This document shows, in pieces, positions 2,308 to 59,404 of a stretch of 64,000 bases of DNA. How positions within the stretch are numbered: the stretch's first letter is position 1; each line of letters starts with the position of its first letter. The DNA is from Eledone cirrhosa (Eukaryota), in contig OZ024741.1 of the NCBI GenBank assembly GCA_964016885.1, positions 36,766,001-36,830,000 on the forward strand. The letters are read 5' to 3'. A model generated the notes under the pieces. That model was not told the origin of the DNA, did not search any database, and was given only the letters and a program-made list of their open reading frames with translations. Position numbers and translations under genes: made by a program.

Positions 2308-2462
2308 GTAAGTTGATCTTACAATATTTAAATTTGCTGGGTTTTCATTTTTTTATTTTATTTCCTTATGTATGTGTGATCAAGTACCAGAAACGCACTG
2401 GGGTGGATTTCCTCTTCCCCCAAATTATTCCCCAAACCATTTTTATTATTGTTATTATTATT

Positions 2463-2700
2463 AGGGGTAGTGGATTGGCATAATCAGTAGAGCGTCGGAC
2501 AACTATGTTTAGCATAGAGTTACGGCCCTTTACGTTCTGAGTTCAAATCCTGCCGAGGTTAGCTTTGCCTTTCATCCTTATGGGGTCGATAAAATAAAGT
2601 ACCAGTATTGCACTGGGGTTGGTTTAATCAACTTTCCATTTCCCCAAAATTGTTGGCCTTGTGCCCAAATCAGAAACCATTATTATTATTATTATTATTA
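2463..2700 (+). mobile_element. tRNA-derived SINE with Meta-like central domain and (ATT)n tail
   Basis: A-box-like tggcataatcagt, B-box gagttcaaatcc, gcctttcatcct...ggggtcgataaaataaagtaccag core, ATT tail. Confidence 0.8.
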
Positions 2701-3784
2701 TTTATTTATTTGTATTCCTAGTTACTTCCCTGTCCTCTAGATAACCAGCATTCATTCTGACTGCTTTACTAAACTTAAACAATCTTTCCTTAAACTGCCA
2801 AAGTCAACTTTGCTCTTTAGTCTTTTTGAGGTTGATAAAAAGGTATCAGTACTGGGGCAGTAGATTGGCAGAATTGTCAATGAAACTGTATATGATCCAA
2901 ACTCTGTATATCCTGAATTCAAATTCTGCCTATTGTCACCAGCAGATAGTATTAGCAATAGAAAGACCAATGGAAACATTGTTTCCTTGGTTCAATCTAA
3001 TGATCGGCTCCTTTTCTTTCCTTAAACTTTGGCAACATTCTCTTCCTTGAAATTTGCTTGCTTATAATCTGTTATTATCTCTCTCTAAGCACAACCTGAA
3101 CCTATCTAAATACTTTTCCCTCTTTGTCCCAACCCCCAACTCCATTTTGAAATCAATTCATTCAAATCTTGCCACGATTAACTTTTTCTGTTTGTTTATA
3201 TTGCTAGTTAAACATTTTTTTTTAATCAAAATTCTATTTATATATATTTATTTAAAAATTTTTTTTTTTATTTGCAAATAATATTTATTAAATGTTAAAA
3301 TATTTTATTTCTAGTTATTTTCATATTTAATTTAATTAATTTATTATTTTTGCCTTATTTTAAAGTCTCTGAGGAATGTTTATTACTTTCTGCTGCTGCA
3401 GTTATGCATGGTTCTTCCAATCACTTGTAAAGCCCTTCTTCTGTATTCTGAGAAGTACCCTCATTCCTGTGGATGAAAGTGGTTCTGGAGAGAGTGACAG
3501 AATCTTCCAGTGGAATGTCGTATTTTATGATATAATATAATAATAACTTTAAAATGGAAACAAGACAATTAAAAAAATACTCAACAAAACAGATAGCCAT
3601 AATGATTCTATTTACAATTCACTTCCCTTATCTAACTTCCTCTATCTTACCAGGTTTGCATATTCACTATTACATTTACAATGAGTAATTTATATATATT
3701 TTTACTAACATTACTGTTATAGTCACATAGGAATACCTTATAGACATTTAGTACGTTTATAGCCATATAAAATAATTTATGTAT

Positions 3785-4800
3785 TTGCAGTCATATAGGA
3801 GTACTTTATATATATTTATTACTTTTGAGTCACATAGACTACTTGGTATATCTTTACTACTTGCAGTCATATAGGAGTACTTTATATATATTTATTACTT
3901 TTGAGTCACATAGACTACTTGGTATATCTTTACTACTTGCAGTCATATAGGAGTACTTTATATATATTTATTACTTTTGAGTCACATAGACTACTTGGTA
4001 TATCTTTACTACTTGCAGTCATATAGGAGTACTTTATATATATTTATTACTTTTGAGTCACATAGACTACTTGGTATATCTTTACTACTTGCAGTCATAT
4101 AGGAGTACTTTATATATATTTATTACTTTTGAGTCACATAGACTACTTGGTATATCTTTACTACTTGCAGTCATATAGGAGTACTTTATATATATTTATT
4201 ACTTTTGCAGTCACAGGAGTACTTGGTATATCTTTACTACTTGCAGTCATATAGGAGTACTTTATATATATTTATTACTTTTGCAGTCACATAGACTACT
4301 TGGTATATCTTTACTACTTGCAGTCATATAGGAGTACTTTATATATATTTATTACTTTTGAGTCACATAGACTACTTGGTATATCTTTACTATTTGCAGT
4401 CATATAGGAGTACTTTATATATATTTATTACTTTTGCAGTCACATAGACTACTTGGTATATCTTTACTACTTGCAGTCATATAGGAGTACTTTATATATA
4501 TTTATTACTTTTGCAGTCACAGGAGTACTTGGTATATCTTTACTACTTGCAGTCATATAGGAGTACTTTATATATATTTATTACTCTTGCAGTCACATAG
4601 GAGTACTTGGTATATCTTTACTACTTGCAGTCATATAGGAGTACTTTATATATATTTATTACTTTTGCAGTCACAGGAGTACTTGGTATATCTTTACTAC
4701 TTGCAGTCATATAGGAGTACTTTATATATATTTATTACTCTTGCAGTCACATAGGAGTACTTGGTATATCTTTACTACTTGTAGTCATATAGGAGTATCC
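3785..4800. repeat. 76-bp minisatellite (~13 copies) built from two related ~38-bp halves
   Basis: gcagtcatataggagtactttatatatatttattact / gagtcacatagactacttggtatatctttactact alternate; period 3787 to 3863. Confidence 0.95.
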
Positions 4801-5230
4801 TATATATATATCTCTTATACAAAATCACAGAGGGGTAGATTACTGTACAAGCTTCTCTCCCTGGGGACAACATTTTTTATTCTGACTGTAGTTTCAAAGT
4901 CCAAAGAATAAAGGATAGCTTTTCAATAGATTGATATGGCCACCGTTAACAGAATGGACTTCTATTCAGAGGATTTAATTCTGTAAGGTATAAGAAAATG
5001 ACAAAATATACCCGTGAATAGTATTGTGTTCAATTCTTCATTGAACAAGTGTGGTGTACGAAATTAATCCTGCACACATGCATAGCTCTATCAATAAGGT
5101 AAATATTCATATAAACAGACAAAAATGACAAGTCAAAATTGCCACTAGAAATAGCAGCCAAGTATTGATCCTCTTTCGGCTCATCATAGAAGGAGCAGCA
5201 AATTATACATAAGTAAAATACTTGTGTATA

Positions 5231-5263
<33 letters not shown>

Positions 5264-5725
5264 TATTTACTACTTTTACAGTCATATGGGAATACCTTAT
5301 ATATTTACAATTCTTACAATCATATATGAGTACCTTATACCTCTTAAAGGAGTATTTTTTCCAGTCATATGTGGAGTATCCTATATATAGTCACTACTCT
5401 TGTTGTCATATGTCAGTACCTTATAGTTAGTACTCTTACAATCGTATCTGATTAGTTTATACATATTTAATACTCTTAGTATCAGTAGCCATGTAGTCCA
5501 TCAGTCTTTCAATTTTAAAAGTATTTTTAGTTATTATAATATTCTACAATGCTTTTAGTCATTTTAATTAATTGGTAGACTTCCAAATTAAATCAATCTT
5601 CTTAAAATATTACAAATAACATAAATAATAACGATAAATAATAAATAATAAATAATAACGATAAAGCAAAACAAAATTAATAAATTTGTTCAGATCAGTA
5701 TTAATAACAACAACAATCACTTTAA

Positions 5726-5848
5726 CCCTTTAGCATTTAAACCTAGCTCATACTTATGTTAAGGTATTGTTCTCAAAATAAATAATATCAAAATCTCATA
5801 CAAGTGAAAATACAATAGTAAATATAGAGTAATGTTAATGCTAAAGGG
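5726..5848. mobile_element. piggyBac-type MITE, internally deleted
   Basis: TTAA|CCCTTTAGCATT ... AATGCTAAAGGG|TTA. Confidence 0.8.
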
Positions 5849-6946
5849 TTATGGCTGTTCTCTCTTCTAAAACAGGGTTTAGTCTTGTGGGTCACATAAC
5901 AGACTTAAAAATACTCATTAATGAGGTCCTTTCTGTTGCAATGTTTTATGGTGGCAACTCTTTTAGTTACCTAGGGAAGCTGTGTACATATTTTACAAGA
6001 TACACATTGTATAATAATACTGTATTTCTGAATAAATATTTTAGTTAATTTCTAAATATTGGGAGATTACTCTGGAACTATAAAAACAAAATAATTGGCT
6101 CATGCCGCTTTTTATGTCTCCTATAATAAGGTATTAAGGTAGCTTACTGCTGTACAATATAGACTTTATTATAGAAGACATATAAAAAGTGACATGAGCA
6201 CGGTGCTACTAACTTATAGAAAATAAAACTATATATACAATAAATAATTGGCTGTAGCACTAAGACAGTGTTTAAGCATAATAGAGGTATATATGAAAAC
6301 ATACATAATAAGTTTATATACAATAAACATAGCTTCAATGTCGAAGAAAAATATTTTTTATTGCATATCTCACAATGCTTTGTATTAACTGTACTACTAT
6401 TTTTTTGTTTTGTTACAAAAAAATAAAGTAGTACAGTTAACCTTGAGCACACTGAATTTTTTATGAATTGCTTCCCTTGACACTTCATTATGTATTAAGG
6501 GGAGATTACTCTATTGGTGACATAATGTGCCTGGAGCACCCAGAAGACTAATAAAAAGCATGGTGAGCTATGCAATAAACAATATTTTTCTTCAGCAGTG
6601 AGGCTACCTATATGTTTATTGAATATATTTGTCTTCATATACATCTCTGTTAAAAACAAAATAGTATAGTATATATGAAGCATTGTGAGATATGTGGTTA
6701 AAATAGTTTTAAGAAAGCTCATGCAATCATCATCATTTTATGTAACTTAGAAATATAGGAGTAAAAACGAGTTAAAAAAGCCACAATAAAACAACAATTT
6801 ATACTTTTACCTTATATTTCATAATATTTAGGGCAAAGCTGGGCTCTTTGTAAATTGTTGTTTTATTTTGTCACACTTTCACTCCTTTATTTCTAACTTG
6901 CATTGGACTGGCTTTCCTAAAACAATATAAACTATATTATGAATAA

Positions 6947-7328
6947 AAGGGCAGTGGATTGGCAGTATCGGTAGAGGTTCGGACGCCATGCTTTGACGCA
7001 TAGAGTTACGGCCCTTGCCATTTTGAGTTCAAGTCCCGCCGAGGTTAACTTTGCCTTTCATCCTTACGGGGTCGATAAAATAAAGTACCAGTAATGTACT
7101 GGGTAATTTCTGGCCTTGTGCCAATAGTAGAAACAATTATGAATAAAAGGGCGGTGGAGGGCCGGACACCATGCTTTCCAGCATAGAATTATGTCCCTTT
7201 ATGGTTTGAGTTCAAATCCCGCCGAGGTTAACTTTGCCTTTCATCCTTACAGGGTAGATAAAATAAAGTACCAGTAATTCACTGGGATAATTGCTGGCCT
7301 TCTGCCAAAAGTAGAAACAATTATTATG
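6947..7328 (+). mobile_element. Two tandem Meta-domain SINE copies
   Basis: Two repeats of gagttcaa.tcccgccgaggttaactttgcctttcatccttac.gggt.gataaaataaagtaccagt. Confidence 0.8.
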
Positions 7329-7577
7329 AATTAAATGTATATTTAACCCTTTTAATTCCAAATTGTCTGAAACTGATCTGGTTTTATGATACACATTTGC
7401 TCATTTTAAAATATTCATACTTATACTAAAACCGTCCATCATAATTTTATTTCAGAAATATTTGTTAAATAAGATTTCAAGCATCAACTTACTAATGTAA
7501 ATGGTAGTTATTTCAACAGTAATTGAAGCACATAGGGAGTATATTTCACTGGAAATATAGTAACAAAAGGGTTTATC

Positions 7578-7786
7578 CCTTTAACATTTAACCCGGCCAT
7601 ATCCAACTAGAATTCTCTCACCTCCTTCTGTTCAAACCAACTGTAACTCGCCACTGATATTGATGTTATGGTATTGTTCTCAAAGTAAATAAAATCAAAA
7701 TGTCATATATTCGATATTATGTGAGATAAAGACTTTACCACAAAAATACAGTAGTAAATATAGAGTAATGTAAATGCTAAAAGGGT
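7578..7786. mobile_element. piggyBac-type MITE, same family as 48788 and 61076
   Basis: ccctttaacattt ... aaatgctaaaaggg termini and shared internal sequence. Confidence 0.75.
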
Positions 7787-8127
7787 AAATAAGAAGTTGC
7801 TGGACAGTGTAGAGACAGTTCTCTATAAATTTGTTGACTTAGGTATTTTTAATAGGATGTATTAAGTACTGGATTTTGAAAATATTTCTCTTAATTTTTA
7901 ATAATTCAAAATTTAAATTATCTCCCTAAAAACATGTGATGAGCTGCATTCTTTATTCATAATCTCACTCTAGTTTATTTTGTGTGAGTAGGCACACACA
8001 CAGTTTTTTAGAATAGCTACACCATATTCCTCCATGTCGTAAGTGGTGACTAAAAGGGTTGATGTCAGGAAAGATATCTAGACGTTCAAATTGATGGCCT
8101 TGTGTCAATGTTAGAAGGAATTATTAT

Positions 8128-8345
8128 TGGCAGTATCAGTAGAGCATCAGACAACATGCTTCGCGACCTAGAGTTACGGCCCGTTACATTCCGAGTTCAA
8201 ATACCGCTGAGGTTAGCTTTACCTTTCATCCTCATGGGGTCGATAAAATAAAGTACCAGTAATGCACTGGAGTCGATTTAATTGACTTTCCCCTCCCCCA
8301 AAATTGTTTAGCCATATGCCTAACTCAGAAACAATTATTTCTATT
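8128..8345 (+). mobile_element. Meta-domain SINE
   Basis: Similar to 2463-2700 along its length. Confidence 0.8.
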
Positions 8346-9869
8346 ATTATTTTATTACTACCACCATCATCATCACTATAATTATTGTCACTACTACTAC
8401 TACTACTACTACTACAACTACTACTATAGAAATTCTTTAGGAAAAAAAATCTAAGAATTCTAATAATAATAATAATAACAACTGCAACTATAAGAGATCT
8501 CTTACCAGAATTCCACTGAAATCCACAGGAAGAATCCGAACTTGCAGGTCCGAGCTCATCCCCCGTGGATGAGTCACCTGGGTATGGAAGCGCGGTGGGG
8601 TTCTCGATATGAGTCTGTCAGTCGAGAGCCTGGCTGGCGACTAAGCAAGTCGGGACCCAGTGCCCAGGGGTATAACTGGGTACATTGTCTTCTATAACAA
8701 AAGGCTCCTTAGTAATCTGTTAAGGTGAAAGTGAAAACAAAAGGGTTTAAAAACAACCTTCATAATGGAAAAAAAACAAAACAAACGTTTTTGGTGCTGG
8801 AATTGGTTAAATTTCTTTGGTTTCTTTAATTTCTTTCTGTAACTGATCCATTTTTCTCTCCAAATTATTGGTGCCTAAATCATTAATGATTCAGCCAAAA
8901 CAAAATGTCTTCTTCATGTGTGCATGTATATATGTATGTGTGTATATATATCTATATATAAAAGAGAGCATTGTAGTTTGCTTGAAGTATTGTGTAAAAT
9001 GAAGAAAATACTGTTTTGTTTGAAAGCTACTATAGTGTGGATTGGACAGTAAATGTTAAAAATATAACAATGATGTTGGGGTGTTATCTTGCAGTTTTTT
9101 TATAGTTTCTTTATATTTCAGGATAAAATCTCTTTATCAAAAGGTTAATAGAAAAAAAACTAGTTCTGAGCTGTACATTTTTTGTCACTATTAAGCTGCA
9201 GCATTTGTTCTGGCTCTGTATTCTGAGTTTATATCCCGCCAAGGTCAACTTTGCTTTTCATCCTTTCAGTGTCAGTAAATAAAGTACCAGAATTTCAGAG
9301 GTGGGGGATTGGTGGAATTGTAAGAGCATCAGATGGGATGGATACCTTGTGGTAACTGTTCTCATTCTTTATGTTTTAATTTCAAATCCCCCCTCTTGTC
9401 ATCAGAAGCGTGGTAACACTTCTGCCAGGAGTTGTGACCAACAGATACAGCAATGGAAAGACCAATTGAAACATAGTTTCCTTGGTCCAATCTAATTTCC
9501 TTATTATTCAAGACTGACACATCATCATCATCATCATCAACTGCTGTAGCAGCAACAATATTAGTGGCGTTATGGATGGCTAGGATAAAAATTCATTAGA
9601 CATTTCAGTTTCATACCACCCACAACAACACAACAGTTTTAACCCTTTTGATACCAGACTACCTGAAACCATTCCTGGTTATATAATACAAAGTTGTTTA
9701 TTTTTAAACCTTTATATCTATATAAAAATCTTCCATCGTAATTTTATGTAAGAATATGTATTTTGTTATGCTCCAAATACCAACTTCATTATTATTGAAA
9801 ATTCTTCTTCTTCTGCTCCTTCTCCTCTTCCTCCTCCCTCATGTTATCCTTCCATTTTGCTTGTATCCT

Positions 9870-10530
9870 ACCTCTGGATCCTCTTCTAGTTGGCTTGGCT
9901 CATAAAATCTGTGCAGCAATTTGTAGACACTCTAACCACATGTATATAGTACTGGAGCTGTGATCTGTTGATTTGGAGAAATGATTGGAAGAAATGGCAA
10001 TCCTGATCTAAATATGAATGGAGAGGCCTTATTAGACTTCTATTCTAGGAATGGGCTCTCTGTTATGTACACTTTCTTCCAGTACAAAGACGGCTATAAT
10101 TATACATGATATAAGGGAAATTGGGGACTGATCAGTAATTTATTTTTTTTATTGTCCCTGATCTCTTTGATTCTGAACTGGATGTTCATGTTAAGTGAGG
10201 GGTTGAGTTGTCAACTGATCCCCAGCTAGTTATCTGCAGCCTGAGATGACCTAAAGTCAAGAAAAGCCACAAAACTGGCAGGTTCAGCTTGACCTTCAGG
10301 ATAAAGTGGGAATTGTTGAGTAATAAAGCAGTCACAACCAGGTATGTGGATACTATTGCATCCAAACTCAGAGGACATTGAAGCAAAGTTGAGACTATTC
10401 AGTTTGGCAGTTTCTGCTGCAGAGGAGAATGTCTTGGTGTGGTGTCGATTGGCATGAAGGCCCCCTGGTTCAATCAGGAGGTTAAAAATGTCATCCTAGC
10501 AAAGAAGGTTTACAAAGTTTGGCTTTGAAA
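9870..10530 (+). mobile_element. Highly degenerate RTE-like endonuclease fragment
   Basis: Remnant translation IGRNGNPDLNMNGEALLDFYSRNGLSVMYTFFQYK and LSTDPQLV, with stops and frameshifts. Confidence 0.6.
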
Positions 10531-10760
10531 AAGAAAATTAGTTACAATTACTAAATCTAAATTTTTGATTATTTCAAAAATTATTTGAATATTATATGCA
10601 GTGTTTTTCATTAGAAATATTGTAGCAAAAGGTTTAAGGCCATTTCAAATTATCTGAGTAATTAATTCCAGAACTTTCTTTTATCTACCAAAAGGGTTTT
10701 CAATAAAAGTATTTTATGAATGTTAGACACTTAGAAGTAGAAAAATCCCCCTTCCCACAA

Positions 10761-11671
10761 TCTATATATATAAAACTGTGGTTGTCTGTCTGTCTATCGA
10801 TTTTTGGCACACATCTCCTCTTAGAATCTCTCACGGAATTGCACCGAAATTGCTATACTTGTACATTGAGCCCTAGCGAAGACATCGGAAAAAAAATATT
10901 TCAAATTGACCCACCCTATGTGACGAAATCGAATATAATGTATCGATTTTTGAGCGTAAGTTATCAGTTATTTCCCTTTGTTCTGTTTACATTGAGCGTC
11001 TTACGTAAAAAATTACGCTGGCTTTCTCAGCGTTTAAAATGACATTAACACAATACACGAACAGTTGTCGAGCCAGCAAAATATTGACCTGCAAAATTCA
11101 TCAGTTCGAACACTAAGCTTCCGTTTTGCTTCATTTCCATTTAAAAGCATTTTAAAACAATATTTTTACTTGAAAACAAGTCTATTTAAAGACTACGTAA
11201 AACAAGCAAATATTTCGTCGTTAGGCGTGCAGACAAACAGTCGTGCAGACAGACAGTCGTGCAGAGAGGTGATATAGGCGTGCAGACAGACAGTCGTGCA
11301 GAGAGGTGATATAGGCGTGCAGACAGACAGTCGTGCAGAGAGGTGATATAGGCGTGCAGACAGACATAACTGATAATTTGGTTACGCTAATGTTTTTCTC
11401 TGCGTTGCAGTGTTTACATTTTCGATCTTTGTTAATAAATAACCAGTGCAGTTTCTATCCCCAGCATCCTCTTTTGTTATAACATTCGGGTTATCGTTAT
11501 GTTTTCTTAACTTCATAAGGCATATTGTTGGTTGAGGGAATATTAATCAAAAACACCACATGCAAGTCTGCACAGTAGACACTACAGTTTTTAAGCCAAG
11601 AAAGAAACTTAACATTGTAACTTTAACACAGCTACTGAGCGACCCCGAGCAACACCGGGCTTTACTGCTAG
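10761..11671 (+). mobile_element. Non-autonomous Helitron
   Basis: A|TCTATATATATAAAA 5' end; subterminal hairpin CCCG-agcaaca-CCGGG; CTAG|T 3' end; no TSD; internal 37-bp tandem repeat at 11224-11367. Confidence 0.88.
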
Positions 11672-12357
11672 TTATATATAAACCTCTTTCAATTTAAGAT
11701 CACAGACATTTCCAGTAATCTCCATTATTCTCTGTTGGTGACAATGACACAGGAATTTTGCTGGTTCATTCGTCATAAAGAAAGCAATATTTGAAATGTG
11801 TTAGATATTACTATCCTATAATTTAATTTTTACCCATTTTCTTTGGTGAGTGTTTTCCTTTCATAATAAATCAATCCGACTTTATCATATAACAAGAAAT
11901 CAGATATCATTCACTTTCTTTTCATCACTTTCATTTGCTTCACGGTTGTTCAAGAATATTGCTGATTGTCTTTATGGAGATTACTTGAAGTGTCTGTGAT
12001 CTTAAATCGAATGATTACCATTTTTTAATGTTGTTTTTGGTGCAGCACAGCAAGAGATGGGATCTCTGTAACATCATAGACTTCATACTTTTTTTTTTTT
12101 TCAACCTCCATCCTCCCTCCTAGAACTGATGTAGTTAACTCATCATTTTTAGTTCCATTTTATACCCCCCCCCCCCTCCAGCCCCACTTCAATCAATCAA
12201 GCATCTCAACAATAACTGAGAATCACAATTCCTTGCTTGCCATGCTACCGTGGAAGAACTCTTCACTAAGCATGCCTTCAATATTTGCATCAATAACATG
12301 TACTTTTGATCATCAGAAGTGTGTGCGTGTGTGTTTGTGTGTGTGCATATGTCAGTG

Positions 12358-12600
12358 AAGGCATGTAGCTTAGTGGTTAGGGTGTTTGGCTCATAAACTT
12401 ATGGTTGAGAATTTGCTTTTCAGTTGTACATTGTGTTCTTGAGCAAGACACTTTATTTCATATTGCTCCTGTACACTCATCTGGCAAAACTGAGTGGTTT
12501 CAGTAATTCAAAGGACCAGCCTTGTCACACACTGTCATGCTGAATATCCCTGAAAACTGTGTTGGGGAACATGTGTCTATGGAACACTTGATGCAAGTCA
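12358..12600 (+). mobile_element. tRNA-derived SINE (cttgagcaagacactt body)
   Basis: tagcttagtggttag A-box; body shared with the 16353 copy. Confidence 0.7.
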
Positions 12601-12829
12601 TGTGCTTATGTGTGAGCATATGAAGGTGTTTGTGTGTATGCATGTGCGTTTGCATGCACTGCTGTAGAGCAGTAGGAATTTCATTGCAAACCAAAATACC
12701 AAGTCCACCACTCAGGTGCCCAACAAGGTTGCCATGGCTCTTCTGTTATAGGTCACAATGGAGGAATTCAAGACTAGTTGTCTATTGGTATTTATGTATT
12801 CCAGTAACATAGTTCTTGTAGCTGCATTA

Positions 12830-41114: not shown

Positions 41115-42125
41115 TAAACGGAAAAAATGAAACAAAATTTCATTTCTCACTCTTAGTACGGCTGTTACTTAAATATAAGTATGTATACGTATATACATAT
41201 ATGTATACAGACGTACAGTAGTATGTATATATATATACATACATGCACACATATATATATGTACGTATGGATTCACCGAACACTTATTATAATGCTCGGT
41301 GTGTTTGTAAACAAACATCCCGAATTACACCGTACAGTGTCTAGCAACCATCGTTGCTCATTTGTTCAACACTGACAAAGGAACGCTGTACTAGTTTCAA
41401 GCTTATTAGCTATCATCAGCAACGTGTTACCTTCCTGCCAGATGATTGAATGTCTGAAAGTATATACTTTCCTTATGCGTATTAACGGCTGAGCAGCCTA
41501 ATTTGCATATCGAGTGAGTTAATCGGCCGGGCGCACCAAAAACGATAAACGGAAAAAATGAAACGAAATTTCATTTCTCACTCTTAGTACAGCTGTTACT
41601 TAAATATAAGTATGTCTACGTACATACATATATGTATACAGATGTACAGTAGTATGTATATATATATACATAGATGCACACATATATATATGTACATATG
41701 GATTCACCGAACATTTATTATAATGCTCGGTGTGTTTGAAAAAATGAAACGAAATTTCATTTCTCACTCTTACTAAGAGTGAGAAATGAAATTTCGTTTC
41801 ATTTTTTCCGTTTATCGTTTTCAGTGCGCCCGGCCGATTAACTCACTCGATATGCAAATTAGGCTGCTCAGCCGTTAATATGCATAAGGAAAGTATATAC
41901 TTTCAGACGTTCAATCATCTGACAGGAAGGTATACAGTGCTGACAATAGCTAATAAGCTTGAAACTAGTACAGCGTTCCTTTGTCAGTGTTGAACAAATG
42001 AGCAACGATGGTTGCTAGACACTGTACGGCTTAATTCGTGATGTTTGTTTACAAACACACCGAGCATTATAATAAATGTTCGGTGAATGCATACGTACAT
42101 ATATATATATGTGTGCATGTATGTA
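41115..42125. mobile_element. Penelope-type direct-plus-inverted terminal-repeat module
   Basis: 41115-41307 repeated at 41545-41737; palindrome centre ~41773; hammerhead in both arms. Confidence 0.75.
41383..41425 (-). ncRNA. Type I minimal hammerhead ribozyme, canonical core
   Basis: Minus strand ACGTTG-CTGATGA-T-AGCT-aata-AGCT-T-GAAA-CTAG-TA/CAGCGT: 6-bp stem I, palindromic ACTAGT stem III. Confidence 0.8.
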
Positions 42126-42342
42126 TATATATATATATATATATATATAACTTATATATATATATATATAAATGTTTCTATATATAAATAATGAATAAAA
42201 ACATCAAATATGTTTAGAATTTTGTGTTTCTCACTAAGCAAGTTCAATAGATTTTATCTAGAGCCATAATAACCAAATAAAGATATATATATATCTAACC
42301 CATGCTAGCGTGGAAGATGGACGTTAAACGTCCATGATGATG

Positions 42343-42413
<71 letters not shown>

Positions 42414-42451
42414 AGGAAGTTATAGTTCACTTGAAGCATTGTGTAATGAGG

Positions 42452-42778
42452 TATAAACGTTTGTATATGTATAATAAAGCCAAAACAATGCAGGTATGGA
42501 CATAGAATAAAGAATGCAAATGCAACAGATATTGTTGACAATTAGTCTTTTACCTTAGATTTATTTAAATGTCCTTAATATTCGAGATAATATCTCTTCT
42601 TCGGAGGGAAGTAAAGCGGTTAAACCAGTGTTCTAAATAGCTTGCCAATTCTTGAAAATTAAGGACATTTAAATAAATCTAAGGTAAAAGACTAATTGTC
42701 AACAATATCTTTTGCATTTGCATTCTTTATTCTATGTCCATACCTGCATTGTTTTGGCTTTATTATACATATACAAAC

Positions 42779-42785
<7 letters not shown>
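42452..42785. mobile_element. Foldback module with ~127-bp inverted arms
   Basis: 42452-42578 versus 42658-42785; degenerate hammerhead-like CCGAAGA-A-GAGAT-att-ATCTC-GAAT on the minus strand at 42578-42604. Confidence 0.65.
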
Positions 42786-42821
<36 letters not shown>

Positions 42822-43380
42822 GAGAGAAAGAGCCATATATTGCACAAGAAACACGCTATATTGTAAATATACCAAATACATATTCTATAGAAGAATATGT
42901 ACACAGGTTTCCACCTGAGAAACCTCATAGCACTATTTCATAGCCGGAGAGTGTAGCTCAAGATTAATCTATGTAATCGATCATTGAAAAAAAAGAAAAA
43001 AATCAATCAATGTATTCGATCATCGAAGACAAACTATCGATTATGATTAAACCACAGGAGACTCAGGTACTCATCAGAGGTTTAGTCTCACAATTTTAAG
43101 AGAAATATAGAATGAAGATGGTAAATAAATCAATATACCTGGGAATATGCACAGCTAAGTCCAACTTGTCCACCATGCTCAGAAGCACATGGTGAAATAT
43201 GCCAGACCAGAGATTTCACTTCTGATTCCACCTGTGCACATATTCTTCTATAGAATATGTAGTTGGTATATATACAATATATGGCTCTTTCTCTCTCTGT
43301 ATATACATATATCTCTTTATTTGGTTATATATATATATGGAAGATCGACGTGAAACGATGATGATGATGATATATATATA

Positions 43381-44095
43381 TTCTTTTCCTCTCTTTTACC
43401 TGTTCCAGCCATCCGGCTGAGGCCATGCTGGGGCACCACCTTTGTTGCTACACATTCTTGCTGCTGCCCTTAGGTTACCTTTGTACCATGCTGTGGGCTC
43501 ATCCGTGATCCTTTGGCACCACACAGAGACGTCCTGTTTGAGGGTTGGTCCAGCACACAATGCCAAAGTTTGGTGCTAGTCCCTCCAGGATTTTCCACAT
43601 GTATATCACTGCGTATCTCTCCCGTCTTCGTTCTAAGGAGTAGAATTTCAGTTCTTTTTACCTCTCCCAGTAGCTCATCTCCTTCATCATGGCAATCCTC
43701 TTGGTGTAACTTCGTAGGATTGCCTCAAGCTCCGTGGTTAGTTTGATACTATGGGGTGACCACAGCTGGGAGCAGTAGTCCTGGCGGCTTAGGACAAATG
43801 TCTTCCATAATGTCAACATGGTCTCTCGGTCTCATGTCCGGAAAGTCCTCAAGATGCAGCCAGCGAGTCGCCTGCACATTGTTGCCACTCTCATGATATG
43901 TGAAGAAAAGATGCATCGTCACTCATGTCTATCCCCAGGTCTCATATTGATTTCGTCACGGGGATTTCGATCCCTCCTAGTCCGGTGTAGCTGTGTTGTA
44001 CTGTCTTTGTGTTTGCAGGTTGGTATTGTAGGGCTTGAAATTTTCCAGTATTAAACTGCATGTTGTTGTTCTCAGTCCATTTGTATATGGCATCC
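43381..44095 (-). mobile_element. Degenerate CR1-like LINE 3' fragment
   Basis: LKFYSLERRRERYAVIYMWKILEGLAPN on the minus strand. Confidence 0.75.
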
Positions 44096-44149
44096 ATATT
44101 TATATATATAATATATATATATATAATATATATATATGATATATATATA

Positions 44150-44200
<51 letters not shown>

Positions 44201-44389
44201 AATATATATATATTATATATATATAATATATATATATTATATATATATAATATATATATATATCATATATATATATATATATTATATATATATAATATAT
44301 ATATATATCATATATATATATATATATATCATATATATATAATATATATATATAATATATATATATAATATATATATATTTAATATATA

Positions 44390-44422
<33 letters not shown>

Positions 44423-44455
44423 CTGTGTTATACTTGCAAGCTATGTTTTCTACAG

Positions 44456-44587: not shown

Positions 44588-44774
44588 GTATGCGTCTCTA
44601 CTATTAATTAAAAAAAACGTTTCTTTTCTCTCTCTCTGTGTAGAATCTTGGAACAAACTGCTCATTTGTGTTGAAAAATCATTAACCCTTTCATTGCCAT
44701 ATTTCTTATGAACCACACCTCCTATAATATTCCTATAAGTTTTGAAAGTAATCAAGAATTTGGAGGGATTTAAT

Positions 44775-45212
44775 AATAATAATGAAAATTATTGTGTACA
44801 GTGCTCAAGTGCACTACAATTCTTCAAAGGTGCATGTATAGTACATATAATAATGTATGAATGTCAGGAAAGTGAACTGTGTATGAGTCATGGTATACTC
44901 ACAGATATGCGTGCGTGTGTATGGAGGGGGAATATCAGGTGTTGTGATGGCGAATTTCAGGAAGTTTTGAAGGAGGCAGTGTCCTGATAACTAACAACTG
45001 ATGCAGGTAGTTTGTTCCATGCTTCAGCAACTCTGAGCATGAAAAAATGTTTCCGAAAGTCATGGGAGCTGTACTGTTTTCTGACTTTGAAAGCATGTCT
45101 ACGGGTGTTAGACATATGGAATTCAATAATGTGCTTAGGGTTGTTGTTGGAAAGATGGTTAATAATTTTGTGTGTGTCTACCAAGTTAGTTGCCAGATGT
45201 CAGAGCTTTAAT
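44775..45212 (-). mobile_element. 3' fragment of the CR1-like family at 45740-48688, inserted in a piggyBac-type MITE (~44686-45380)
   Basis: Reverse-complement similarity to 48245-48688; MITE sequence resumes on both sides. Confidence 0.8.
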
Positions 45213-45739
45213 GTAATATAACTTTCTTATTATTAAGTTAGTGTTTGGAACATAACCCAACAAAGGTTCTTAAATGAAATTTTGATTGAAGGTATTTAGA
45301 TAGATATAAACATGTCAAAATGAACAGTTTTGTATCATGTGACCAAGGGTGGTTTCTGGCAGTTTGGTGTCAAAAGAGTCAATTACTATGCTAGTGACTA
45401 CACCAATTTAGAGTTAATGAAATCTTTAACTTTAAAAAAAATGGTAATTTTAAAATAGTTTCAGTTTGTGATCCATTTGAAAGAGCTTGTCAAATGACAA
45501 ATATACGTGGGTTAGGTATAAACAATTGCAACTCGTCATTGGTCATATTAAGCAAGGAGGTTTTTTTGGAGTATGTTACACCACTATCATTTCTTTACTG
45601 TGTGATTGAATCAAATTATAAAATTTTAGTCTGTGTGATGATGGGCAGATCTGGAGGTTTGTTAAGGCTGGTGAAACGTGGAAGAGAGATACCAGCTGGT
45701 CTGAGTGTGCTCTACCCACAATAACTGGCAATGAAAAAA

Positions 45740-59368: not shown

Positions 59369-59404
<36 letters not shown>

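Follow-up and report, generated by a model that had tools for sequence, protein, structure and literature searches.

What becomes of a short TA spacer inside a transposable element once other elements have inserted into it? The question is raised by a split element, here called the host, in a 64,000-nucleotide stretch of the Eledone cirrhosa genome (assembly GCA_964016885.1, contig OZ024741.1, forward-strand positions 36,766,001 to 36,830,000; hereafter the window, in which all positions are counted). In the reading that we consider probable, a 15-base TA spacer in a likely Penelope-like retroelement (PLE) was hit by the tip of a LINE and by a second likely PLE, and its TA was lengthened by about 100 bases (Table 1). 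The split host is a clean worked example of a known process, not a discovery.

The host sits near the end of a 42-kb intron. Eleven + strand stretches of the window match ATP13A3-type P5B ATPases as exons, with a mean identity of 81-84% over all matched stretches; the best homologues of one exon come from Argonauta hians, Octopus bimaculoides and O. sinensis (92-93%). Most of the intron is filled by a 25-kb chain (19290-44422) of about 20 LINE and PLE-like pieces with TA tracts between them, TA making up 23% of the sequence. Between 18879 and 42186, 19 of 20 such tracts show strand polarity of their three-base interruptions (sign test, P = 4e-5), the commonest type counting 129 versus 11 by strand whatever the orientation of the flanking elements; this polarity could reflect either descent from one array or a strand-biased process. 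At 23800-24531 a TA tract and a LINE tip are duplicated in tandem with the same interruptions, including a short run of opposite polarity, which suggests that the interruptions are real sequence.

Table 1. Positions of the host, its inserts and related elements, in window coordinates
Feature	Position	Strand	Remarks
Intron of the ATP13A3-type P5B ATPase gene (42 kb)	2310..44454	+	Holds the host and its neighbours
Distant relative of the nested module	8961..9150	-	Collinear with the module, tail through hammerhead; abuts TA at its 3' end
Second host-family copy, 5'-truncated	14112..14345	-	Short spacer
Coding PLE	33212..36753	+	RT, then C-terminal GIY-YIG; broken frames; hammerhead core near 36635; TA on both sides
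Long copy of the tip-source LINE	37090..41002	-	Endonuclease and RT; TA on both sides; PHD finger in a sister copy
Host, one-sided 3' extension	42187..42268	-	Absent from the inverted arm; putative PLE tail
Host, left side of the split junction	42269..42282	-	Identical to the inverted arm
TA tract 1	42283..42294		12 bases, pure
LINE 3' tip (APE-RT, RTE-like)	42295..42342	+	48 bases; (ATG)n tail
TA tract 2	42343..42411		69 bases, interrupted; single G at 42379
Nested module, one-sided extension	42412..42451	-	40 bases; PLE-type tail; homologous to the TA-abutting end of the 8961 relative
Nested module, sense arm	42452..42587	-	136 bases
Nested module, minimal type-I hammerhead motif	42573..42607	-	Decayed; spans the spacer-arm border
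Nested module, inter-arm spacer	42588..42649		62 bases
Nested module, inverted arm	42650..42785	+	133/136 complementary to the sense arm; runs into TA
TA tract 3	42782..42817		36 bases, pure
Host, rest of the sense arm	42818..42927	-	
Host hammerhead motif	42920..43083	-	Perfect catalytic core (43077); 6-bp helix I; 131-base helix II region; near-palindromic loop III
Host, inverted arm	43211..43329	+	Short spacer at 43300-43314; private 21-base deletion
Outer end of the host arm	43326..43381	+	TA (13 bases), second LINE tip (43339-43369), TA (12 bases)

Within the window, BLAST matched the left half of the host (42206-42297) to 14114-14205 (84%, E = 2e-20) and its right half (42801-42948) to 14195-14344 (85%, E = 4e-42). 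Both matches join in the TA spacer of this 14-kb copy, and the halves are therefore contiguous there. An inverted copy at 43211-43337 matches both the right half (E = 1e-22) and the 14-kb copy (E = 3e-24). Across its junction, 13-14 bases that coincide with the end of the left half are followed by a TA run of 13 bases, 2 more bases and then the right half. For the empty spacer, the 14-kb copy gives a length of 16 bases and the inverted arm one of 13-15, and a single G interrupts it in each. The 11-mer at the arm junction is found at only one further locus of the window, a module at 32.5 kb, where both arms contain it. Pairwise alignments were used here, as a three-way MAFFT alignment put the left half in the wrong place. 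Two claims of the initial annotation, that the halves of the 14-kb copy are parted in the host by a LINE tip, a foldback and three TA tracts, and that the inverted arm preserves the short junction, are thus borne out, as is nesting at the TA spacer. The short spacer is agreed on by two copies whether or not the arm is the host's own.

The 14-kb copy has its 3' end at a TA tract lying behind an old LINE tail. It retains the hammerhead's 3' half and lacks an inverted arm. It shares 42206-42268 of the host extension, which in the host adjoins the TA tract 42124-42186. A 9-base local inversion near 42909-42917 in the sense arm of the host is found in neither of the other two copies; like an insertion of 3 bases in the LINE tip (42322-42336), by which a small hairpin there becomes perfect, it is template-switch-like.

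Could the long state instead be ancestral, or an artefact of assembly? Deletion between TA tracts is a plausible way to derive short copies from a long one, but the two copies share both the short spacer and its G interruption, the interval contains pieces of two unrelated families with coherent ends, and the differences between the arms look like real substitutions. We regard this explanation as very improbable.

The filled interval (42283-42817) is 535 bases long and is composed, in order, of 12 bases of TA, 48 of LINE tip, 69 of TA-type sequence, 370 of foldback module and 36 of TA. The two inserts thus account for 418 of the 535 bases (78%), and TA for the other 117. It had been claimed that the spacer 'grew to ~540 bp'; expansion did take place, but it concerns TA, which went from 13-16 to 117 bases, a net gain of about 100 bases that is roughly sevenfold and not thirty-five-fold, most of the interval being inserted DNA. 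By arithmetic, two complete duplications of the spacer would yield at most about 48 bases, leaving some 70 for slippage or import.

Whether the TA grew in place or was brought in bears directly on the main rival explanation, a single event in which the whole block of tip, TA, module and TA was copied from another locus, TA included, by recombination or template switching between TA tracts. TA-bounded units have indeed been duplicated in the window, as in the repeated TA tract and LINE tip at 23.8-24.5 kb, with their shared interruption pattern, and in a 483-base tandem at 25719-26653. However, the window holds no second copy of the tip-module block, and the three tracts contain no three-base interruption in 117 bases, versus one per 34 bases in the long neighbouring tracts (P ~0.03), which mildly favours local growth over import. 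The single G at 42379 in the middle tract also argues against import, as it may be the interruption of the ancestral spacer (chance ~0.08), in which case the LINE would have inserted to its left and the module to its right. A block import therefore seems unlikely to us, although it is the alternative that we take most seriously.

The first insert aligns to the last bases of long LINE copies in which Pfam Exo_endo_phos and RVT_1 domains are found, and is identical to the copy at 59404 at 43 of 45 positions. Copies of this LINE in the window range from about 30 to 3900 bases, are 5'-truncated and carry an (ATG)n tail, and their protein homologues are mostly of ~930-1130 aa with both domains. Judging from these similarities, RTE is the likely clade of the source element. 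Two of the protein matches are named 'Craniofacial development prot...', a label that presumably marks RTE-derived proteins. In an RTE-like ORF at 27388-28290, the C-terminal half encodes a PHD finger, which is also present in many of the homologues.

The initial annotation had taken this site as direct support for TA targeting. One site is no direct proof, and better evidence comes from the junctions of the LINE across the window, where targeting does show. There are 32 merged matches, 22 of which reach the 3' end; 18 are at least 83% identical to a query copy and not cut by the window edge, and the remaining 14, which are old, tail-less or cut by the edge, were left out. Among these 18 young copies, which are not independent since they include a tandem duplicate, a compound copy and the focal copy, the 5' junction lies within 6 bases of (TA)3 or longer in 11 and the 3' end within 6 bases of TA in 13, against 3.4% of background positions in either case; when all tailed matches are counted, 11 of 22 have their 5' junction at TA. 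The 5' junctions fall at varied positions of the element, so that TA acts as the target, beyond any that is carried along as a tail, and they count for targeting since they cannot arise by 3' transduction.

The second insert is the foldback module, both ends of which lie in TA, where target-site duplications are unreadable. PLEs are described as having an inverted 5'-truncated copy beside the sense copy, a tail of 30-40 bases at one end, hammerhead ribozymes in their pLTRs and a bias for (TA)n (PMC8557442). Inverted 5'-truncated copies lie beside sense copies in the module (42452-42587 and 42650-42785) as in the host (42269-42927 and 43211-43329), and the module has a tail of 40 bases at one end only. 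Two positions of the core are mismatched in its hammerhead-like motif, one of them being intact in the other arm, and the motif shows an unpaired base after position 9, a G10.1-C11.1 pair and a palindromic loop. These three traits are reported for PLE hammerheads, together with exchanges of the C3-G8/U3-A8 type (PMC4209133). A strict descriptor of the motif matched 0 of 1500 shuffled sequences and a loose one 285 of 1500, both having been tuned after the motif was seen.

A distant relative of the module at 8961-9150 supports this motif independently. In a scan of 2524 overlapping windows it stood out with a local score of 81, the highest score elsewhere being 55. Compensatory changes are seen in it: U3-A8, in an intact core, stands in place of the C3-G8 of the module, one pair of helix I is swapped, and the palindromic loop differs. 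No inverted arm of this relative was found within 8700-10200. Having TA at the same end as the module and no inverted arm, it counts against a MITE, and the foldback is, on these sequence features, best read as a truncated PLE.

One may ask whether the module, and perhaps the host, instead belongs with MuTAnT and SaTar among the DNA transposons that target TA and have long terminal inverted repeats. The 136-base arms at 98%, the lack of an ORF and the TA on both sides would all fit, and TA-targeting inverted-repeat elements are known in plants (PMC4486113, PMC5907723). Against this, symmetric terminal inverted repeats common to the family copies were not found: the 40-base extension is one-sided and is shared with the arm-less 8961 relative, the 14-kb host copy (14112-14345) has no inverted arm either, and hammerhead motifs occur in both the module and the host. 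A similarity search within the window found no remainder of the inverted arm of the host beyond 43330, and a symmetric reading of the host was therefore dropped. We consider a DNA transposon improbable.

On the minus strand, the host is laid out as an inverted arm, a short body, a sense arm and a one-sided extension that ends at a TA tract. Its one-sided part is 63-82 bases long, versus 30-40 bases for a PLE tail, and the outer end of its arm may have been eroded by the LINE tip at 43339. The inverted arm starts near the position that matches the hammerhead cleavage site, and an imperfect hairpin at 43170-43210, just inside the arm, is possibly the fold-back point. For the hairpin near 42877-42899, no test favoured a Helitron or a micro-exon, and homologous proteins are covered without an exon there.

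The hammerhead of the host was missed by scans that allowed helix II 30 and 60 bases, and the limit was raised to 200 after the motif had been seen by eye; descriptors, likewise tuned after the motif was seen, matched 0 of 3000 shuffles when strict and 18 of 3000 when loose. At the cleavage position the host has G and the 14-kb copy A, the latter being a cleavable base. Mismatches in helix II fall at different positions in the two copies, and the difference between their loops would be explained by one CpG decaying on opposite strands. By their sequences, the hammerheads of both the nested module and the host look inactive. Rfam gave nothing at gathering score in the whole window, and at E-values up to 10 it gave no hammerhead in the host or the module; an E-value scan of 41000-43500 returned mostly miRNA-type matches to TA and hairpins, and one HH9 hammerhead. 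Folding energy did not support any hammerhead tested: neither the host nor the nested motif folded better than shuffles (z = -0.50 and -0.15), and the best fold of the host is not the hammerhead.

The foldback and the host had been left unnamed in the initial annotation; hallmarks of PLEs are present in both and a coding remnant in neither. Six-frame translation by eye showed no coding remnant or PLE ORF in the host, the module or their neighbours, as would be expected of such short copies if they are truncated. Neither of the two matches the coding PLE at 33212-36753, which is of a different family, and together with the missing coding remnant this makes their PLE identity indirect. Host and module appear to work like truncated PLEs, a membership drawn from non-coding hallmarks. 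The coding PLE itself has a Cys-rich linker and a long C-rich 3' region, and would be Neptune-like by the Cys-rich motif described in PMC8557442.

How far the inverted arm can serve as an empty-site control depends on whether it belongs to the host. The initial annotation called it the element's own; the short spacer that it keeps is there, but ownership rests on the layout and cannot be read from sequence closeness, which fails as proof since, in the stretch to the right of the spacer, 3 of 69 positions separate the arm from its partner and 4 of 71 separate it from the 14-kb copy. In the stretch to the left, there is no mismatch between the arm and its partner, whereas the 14-kb copy differs from the arm. 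Since the host combines the layout of the nested module with a perfect-core hammerhead, the arm was likely copied at insertion, and this layout and the exact match to the left make it a usable and likely fair control.

Alternatively, inverted arms could have formed after insertion, by break-induced fold-back at fragile TA, so that the arm at 43.2 kb would be later or separate and no control for time zero. TA tracts can form cruciforms, and in the shared stretch the arm is not clearly nearer to its partner than to the 14-kb copy. The exact match left of the spacer speaks against such an origin. An inverted arm, a one-sided extension and a hammerhead core or close variant moreover recur in the unrelated modules at 32541-32862 and 24828-25885, and a third module, at 41117-42123, has inverted arms and a hammerhead. 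We think post-insertion fold-back quite improbable, and an arm from a separate copy would still show the short spacer.

The insertion into the host was probably a later event, the nested PLE being younger than the host that it interrupts. Arm divergence, 2.2% in the module and 4.3% in the host, is in line with this order, each value coming from 3 mismatches only. The component sequences and their ends, the short spacer of the empty state and the preference of LINE junctions for TA are observed; from them a history may be proposed that involves two separate target-primed insertions. First, a hammerhead-bearing PLE would have inserted into a TA tract, 5'-truncated and with an inverted arm, so that its internal TA spacer was laid down twice. 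An RTE-like LINE would then have primed reverse transcription at a nick in one of the spacers, leaving 48 bases, and an unrelated PLE, before or after the LINE, would have inserted tail-first in the same spacer and formed an inverted arm of its own. Finally, target duplication and polymerase slippage, during gap repair or later replication, may have turned 13-16 bases of TA into 12, 69 and 36. Each insertion would leave TA on both sides, and the site would remain a target.

A more speculative possibility, which we hold to be doubtful, is that the TA was added during integration itself, by reiterative slippage of the telomerase-related reverse transcriptase of the PLE or of a repair polymerase at the nick. 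If so, every insertion would lengthen the TA target, and elements of several retroelement clades would accumulate, ratchet-like, at a single site. The interval 42283-42817 would then be an early stage and the 25-kb array at 19.3-44.4 kb a late stage of the same process, and the polarity of interruptions in 19 of 20 tracts would record directional growth from one seed.

These features have parallels in several known systems. Like PLEs, the elements described here combine a 5'-truncated and inverted copy, a one-sided tail, a minimal type-I hammerhead with a palindromic loop III and insertion in (TA)n; unlike the PLEs described, the host and nested copies have no ORF, and the host has a helix II region of 131 bases and a one-sided part of 63-82 bases. 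A preference for (TA)n is listed for two Octopus Naiad families (PMC8557442 supplement). Naiad elements lack a canonical hammerhead, and the canonical hammerhead seen here argues against Naiad. In vitro, a lizard PLE nicks AT-rich DNA, also within its own pLTR, and internal priming explains its tail (PMC11167929). PMC13282606 reports PLE and RTE families that are active in O. vulgaris, and links between RTE and microsatellites are known (PMC2887409), including octopus RTE-2_OV (PMC9115989). The LINE resembles RTE elements, as described there, in its single endonuclease-RT ORF, its many 5'-truncated 3' tips and its simple-repeat tail, but unlike those with microsatellite tails it also has 5' junctions in TA, which points to target choice and not only to tail generation. 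Non-LTR retrozymes are likewise described as non-coding, PLE-linked and equipped with a type-I hammerhead, but as head-to-tail tandems (10.64898/2026.07.22.740005), whereas the modules here are single or inverted, and no head-to-tail units other than TA were found at 42187-43330.

The closest parallels for the gain in TA come from plants. Maize TAFT elements have empty sites of 6-8 TA bases and occupied sites of up to (TA)50, and SaTar denotes unrelated elements that accumulate as TA-separated arrays (both described in PMC5907723), while Medicago MuTAnT insertions show about 9 TA repeats when empty versus about 15 per flank when occupied (PMC4486113). The short TA empty site, the longer TA on occupation and the TA-separated arrays are common to these systems and to our locus. 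According to these descriptions, however, TAFT, MuTAnT and SaTar are plant DNA transposons, and SaTar elements stand in arrays without nesting; at our locus retroelements of an animal are involved, one of them truly nested because the host carries a TA run of its own. TA-preferring Octopus PLEs and the lengthening of TA after insertion (TAFT, MuTAnT) have both been published, and the process at this locus is a familiar one. A literature search found no account, for PLE or RTE insertions in cephalopods, of TA gained relative to the empty site; octopus repeat libraries may already contain the families described here.

What the locus adds is a built-in comparison of before and after, provided by the inverted arm of a PLE. 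Paired LTRs give a similar built-in comparison. A genome-wide survey of inverted PLE arms could gauge the TA gained per insertion without population data. For annotators, it means that TA-flanked 'foldbacks' in octopods can be fragments of PLEs and not MITEs. If the gain of TA is coupled to integration, introns could grow very large through such feedback, and the coupling would be relevant to the bias of PLEs for microsatellites, which PMC8557442 lists as open.

Further elements of the intron show related arrangements. The module at 32541-32862 is flanked by TA on both sides; its arms are inverted, its tail measures ~45 bases, its hammerhead core at 32710 is a perfect U3-A8 one, and a fold-back hairpin of 30 bp lies in its spacer. 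A 164-base piece between TA tracts (23523-23686) contains a perfect hammerhead core (23620, minus strand) with an 8-bp helix I and a 6-base palindromic loop. The PLE-like insertion at 24828-25885 is young, its arms being identical at 181 of 182 positions; its end is duplicated in tandem at 26212-26368, and 19290-19411 is a diverged miniature relative with an inversion of its own. The element at 41117-42123 is complex, duplicated and inverted, with a 35-bp hairpin at the inversion point, and the minimal hammerhead on its minus strand (41366-41437) scores 25.2 bits with Rfam HH9, under the gathering score of 52.

A truncated RT element with a zf-RVT match and a tetranucleotide tail lies between TA tracts at 21483-23462, and we take it to be L1/Tx1-like. 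The TA-flanked pieces at 20724-21014 and 31052-31107 have no relative within the window. On the minus strand, 43382-44100 is the 3' part of a LINE with TA at both ends, weakly similar (tblastx, E = 1.5e-9) to a CR1-like copy at 45.7-48.5 kb. The AT-rich repeats at 1589-1957, 14373-14620, 15513-15851, 17181-17380 and 44671-45382 belong to an older, dispersed family that shows inverted arrangements, and one of its copies begins directly behind the 14-kb element.
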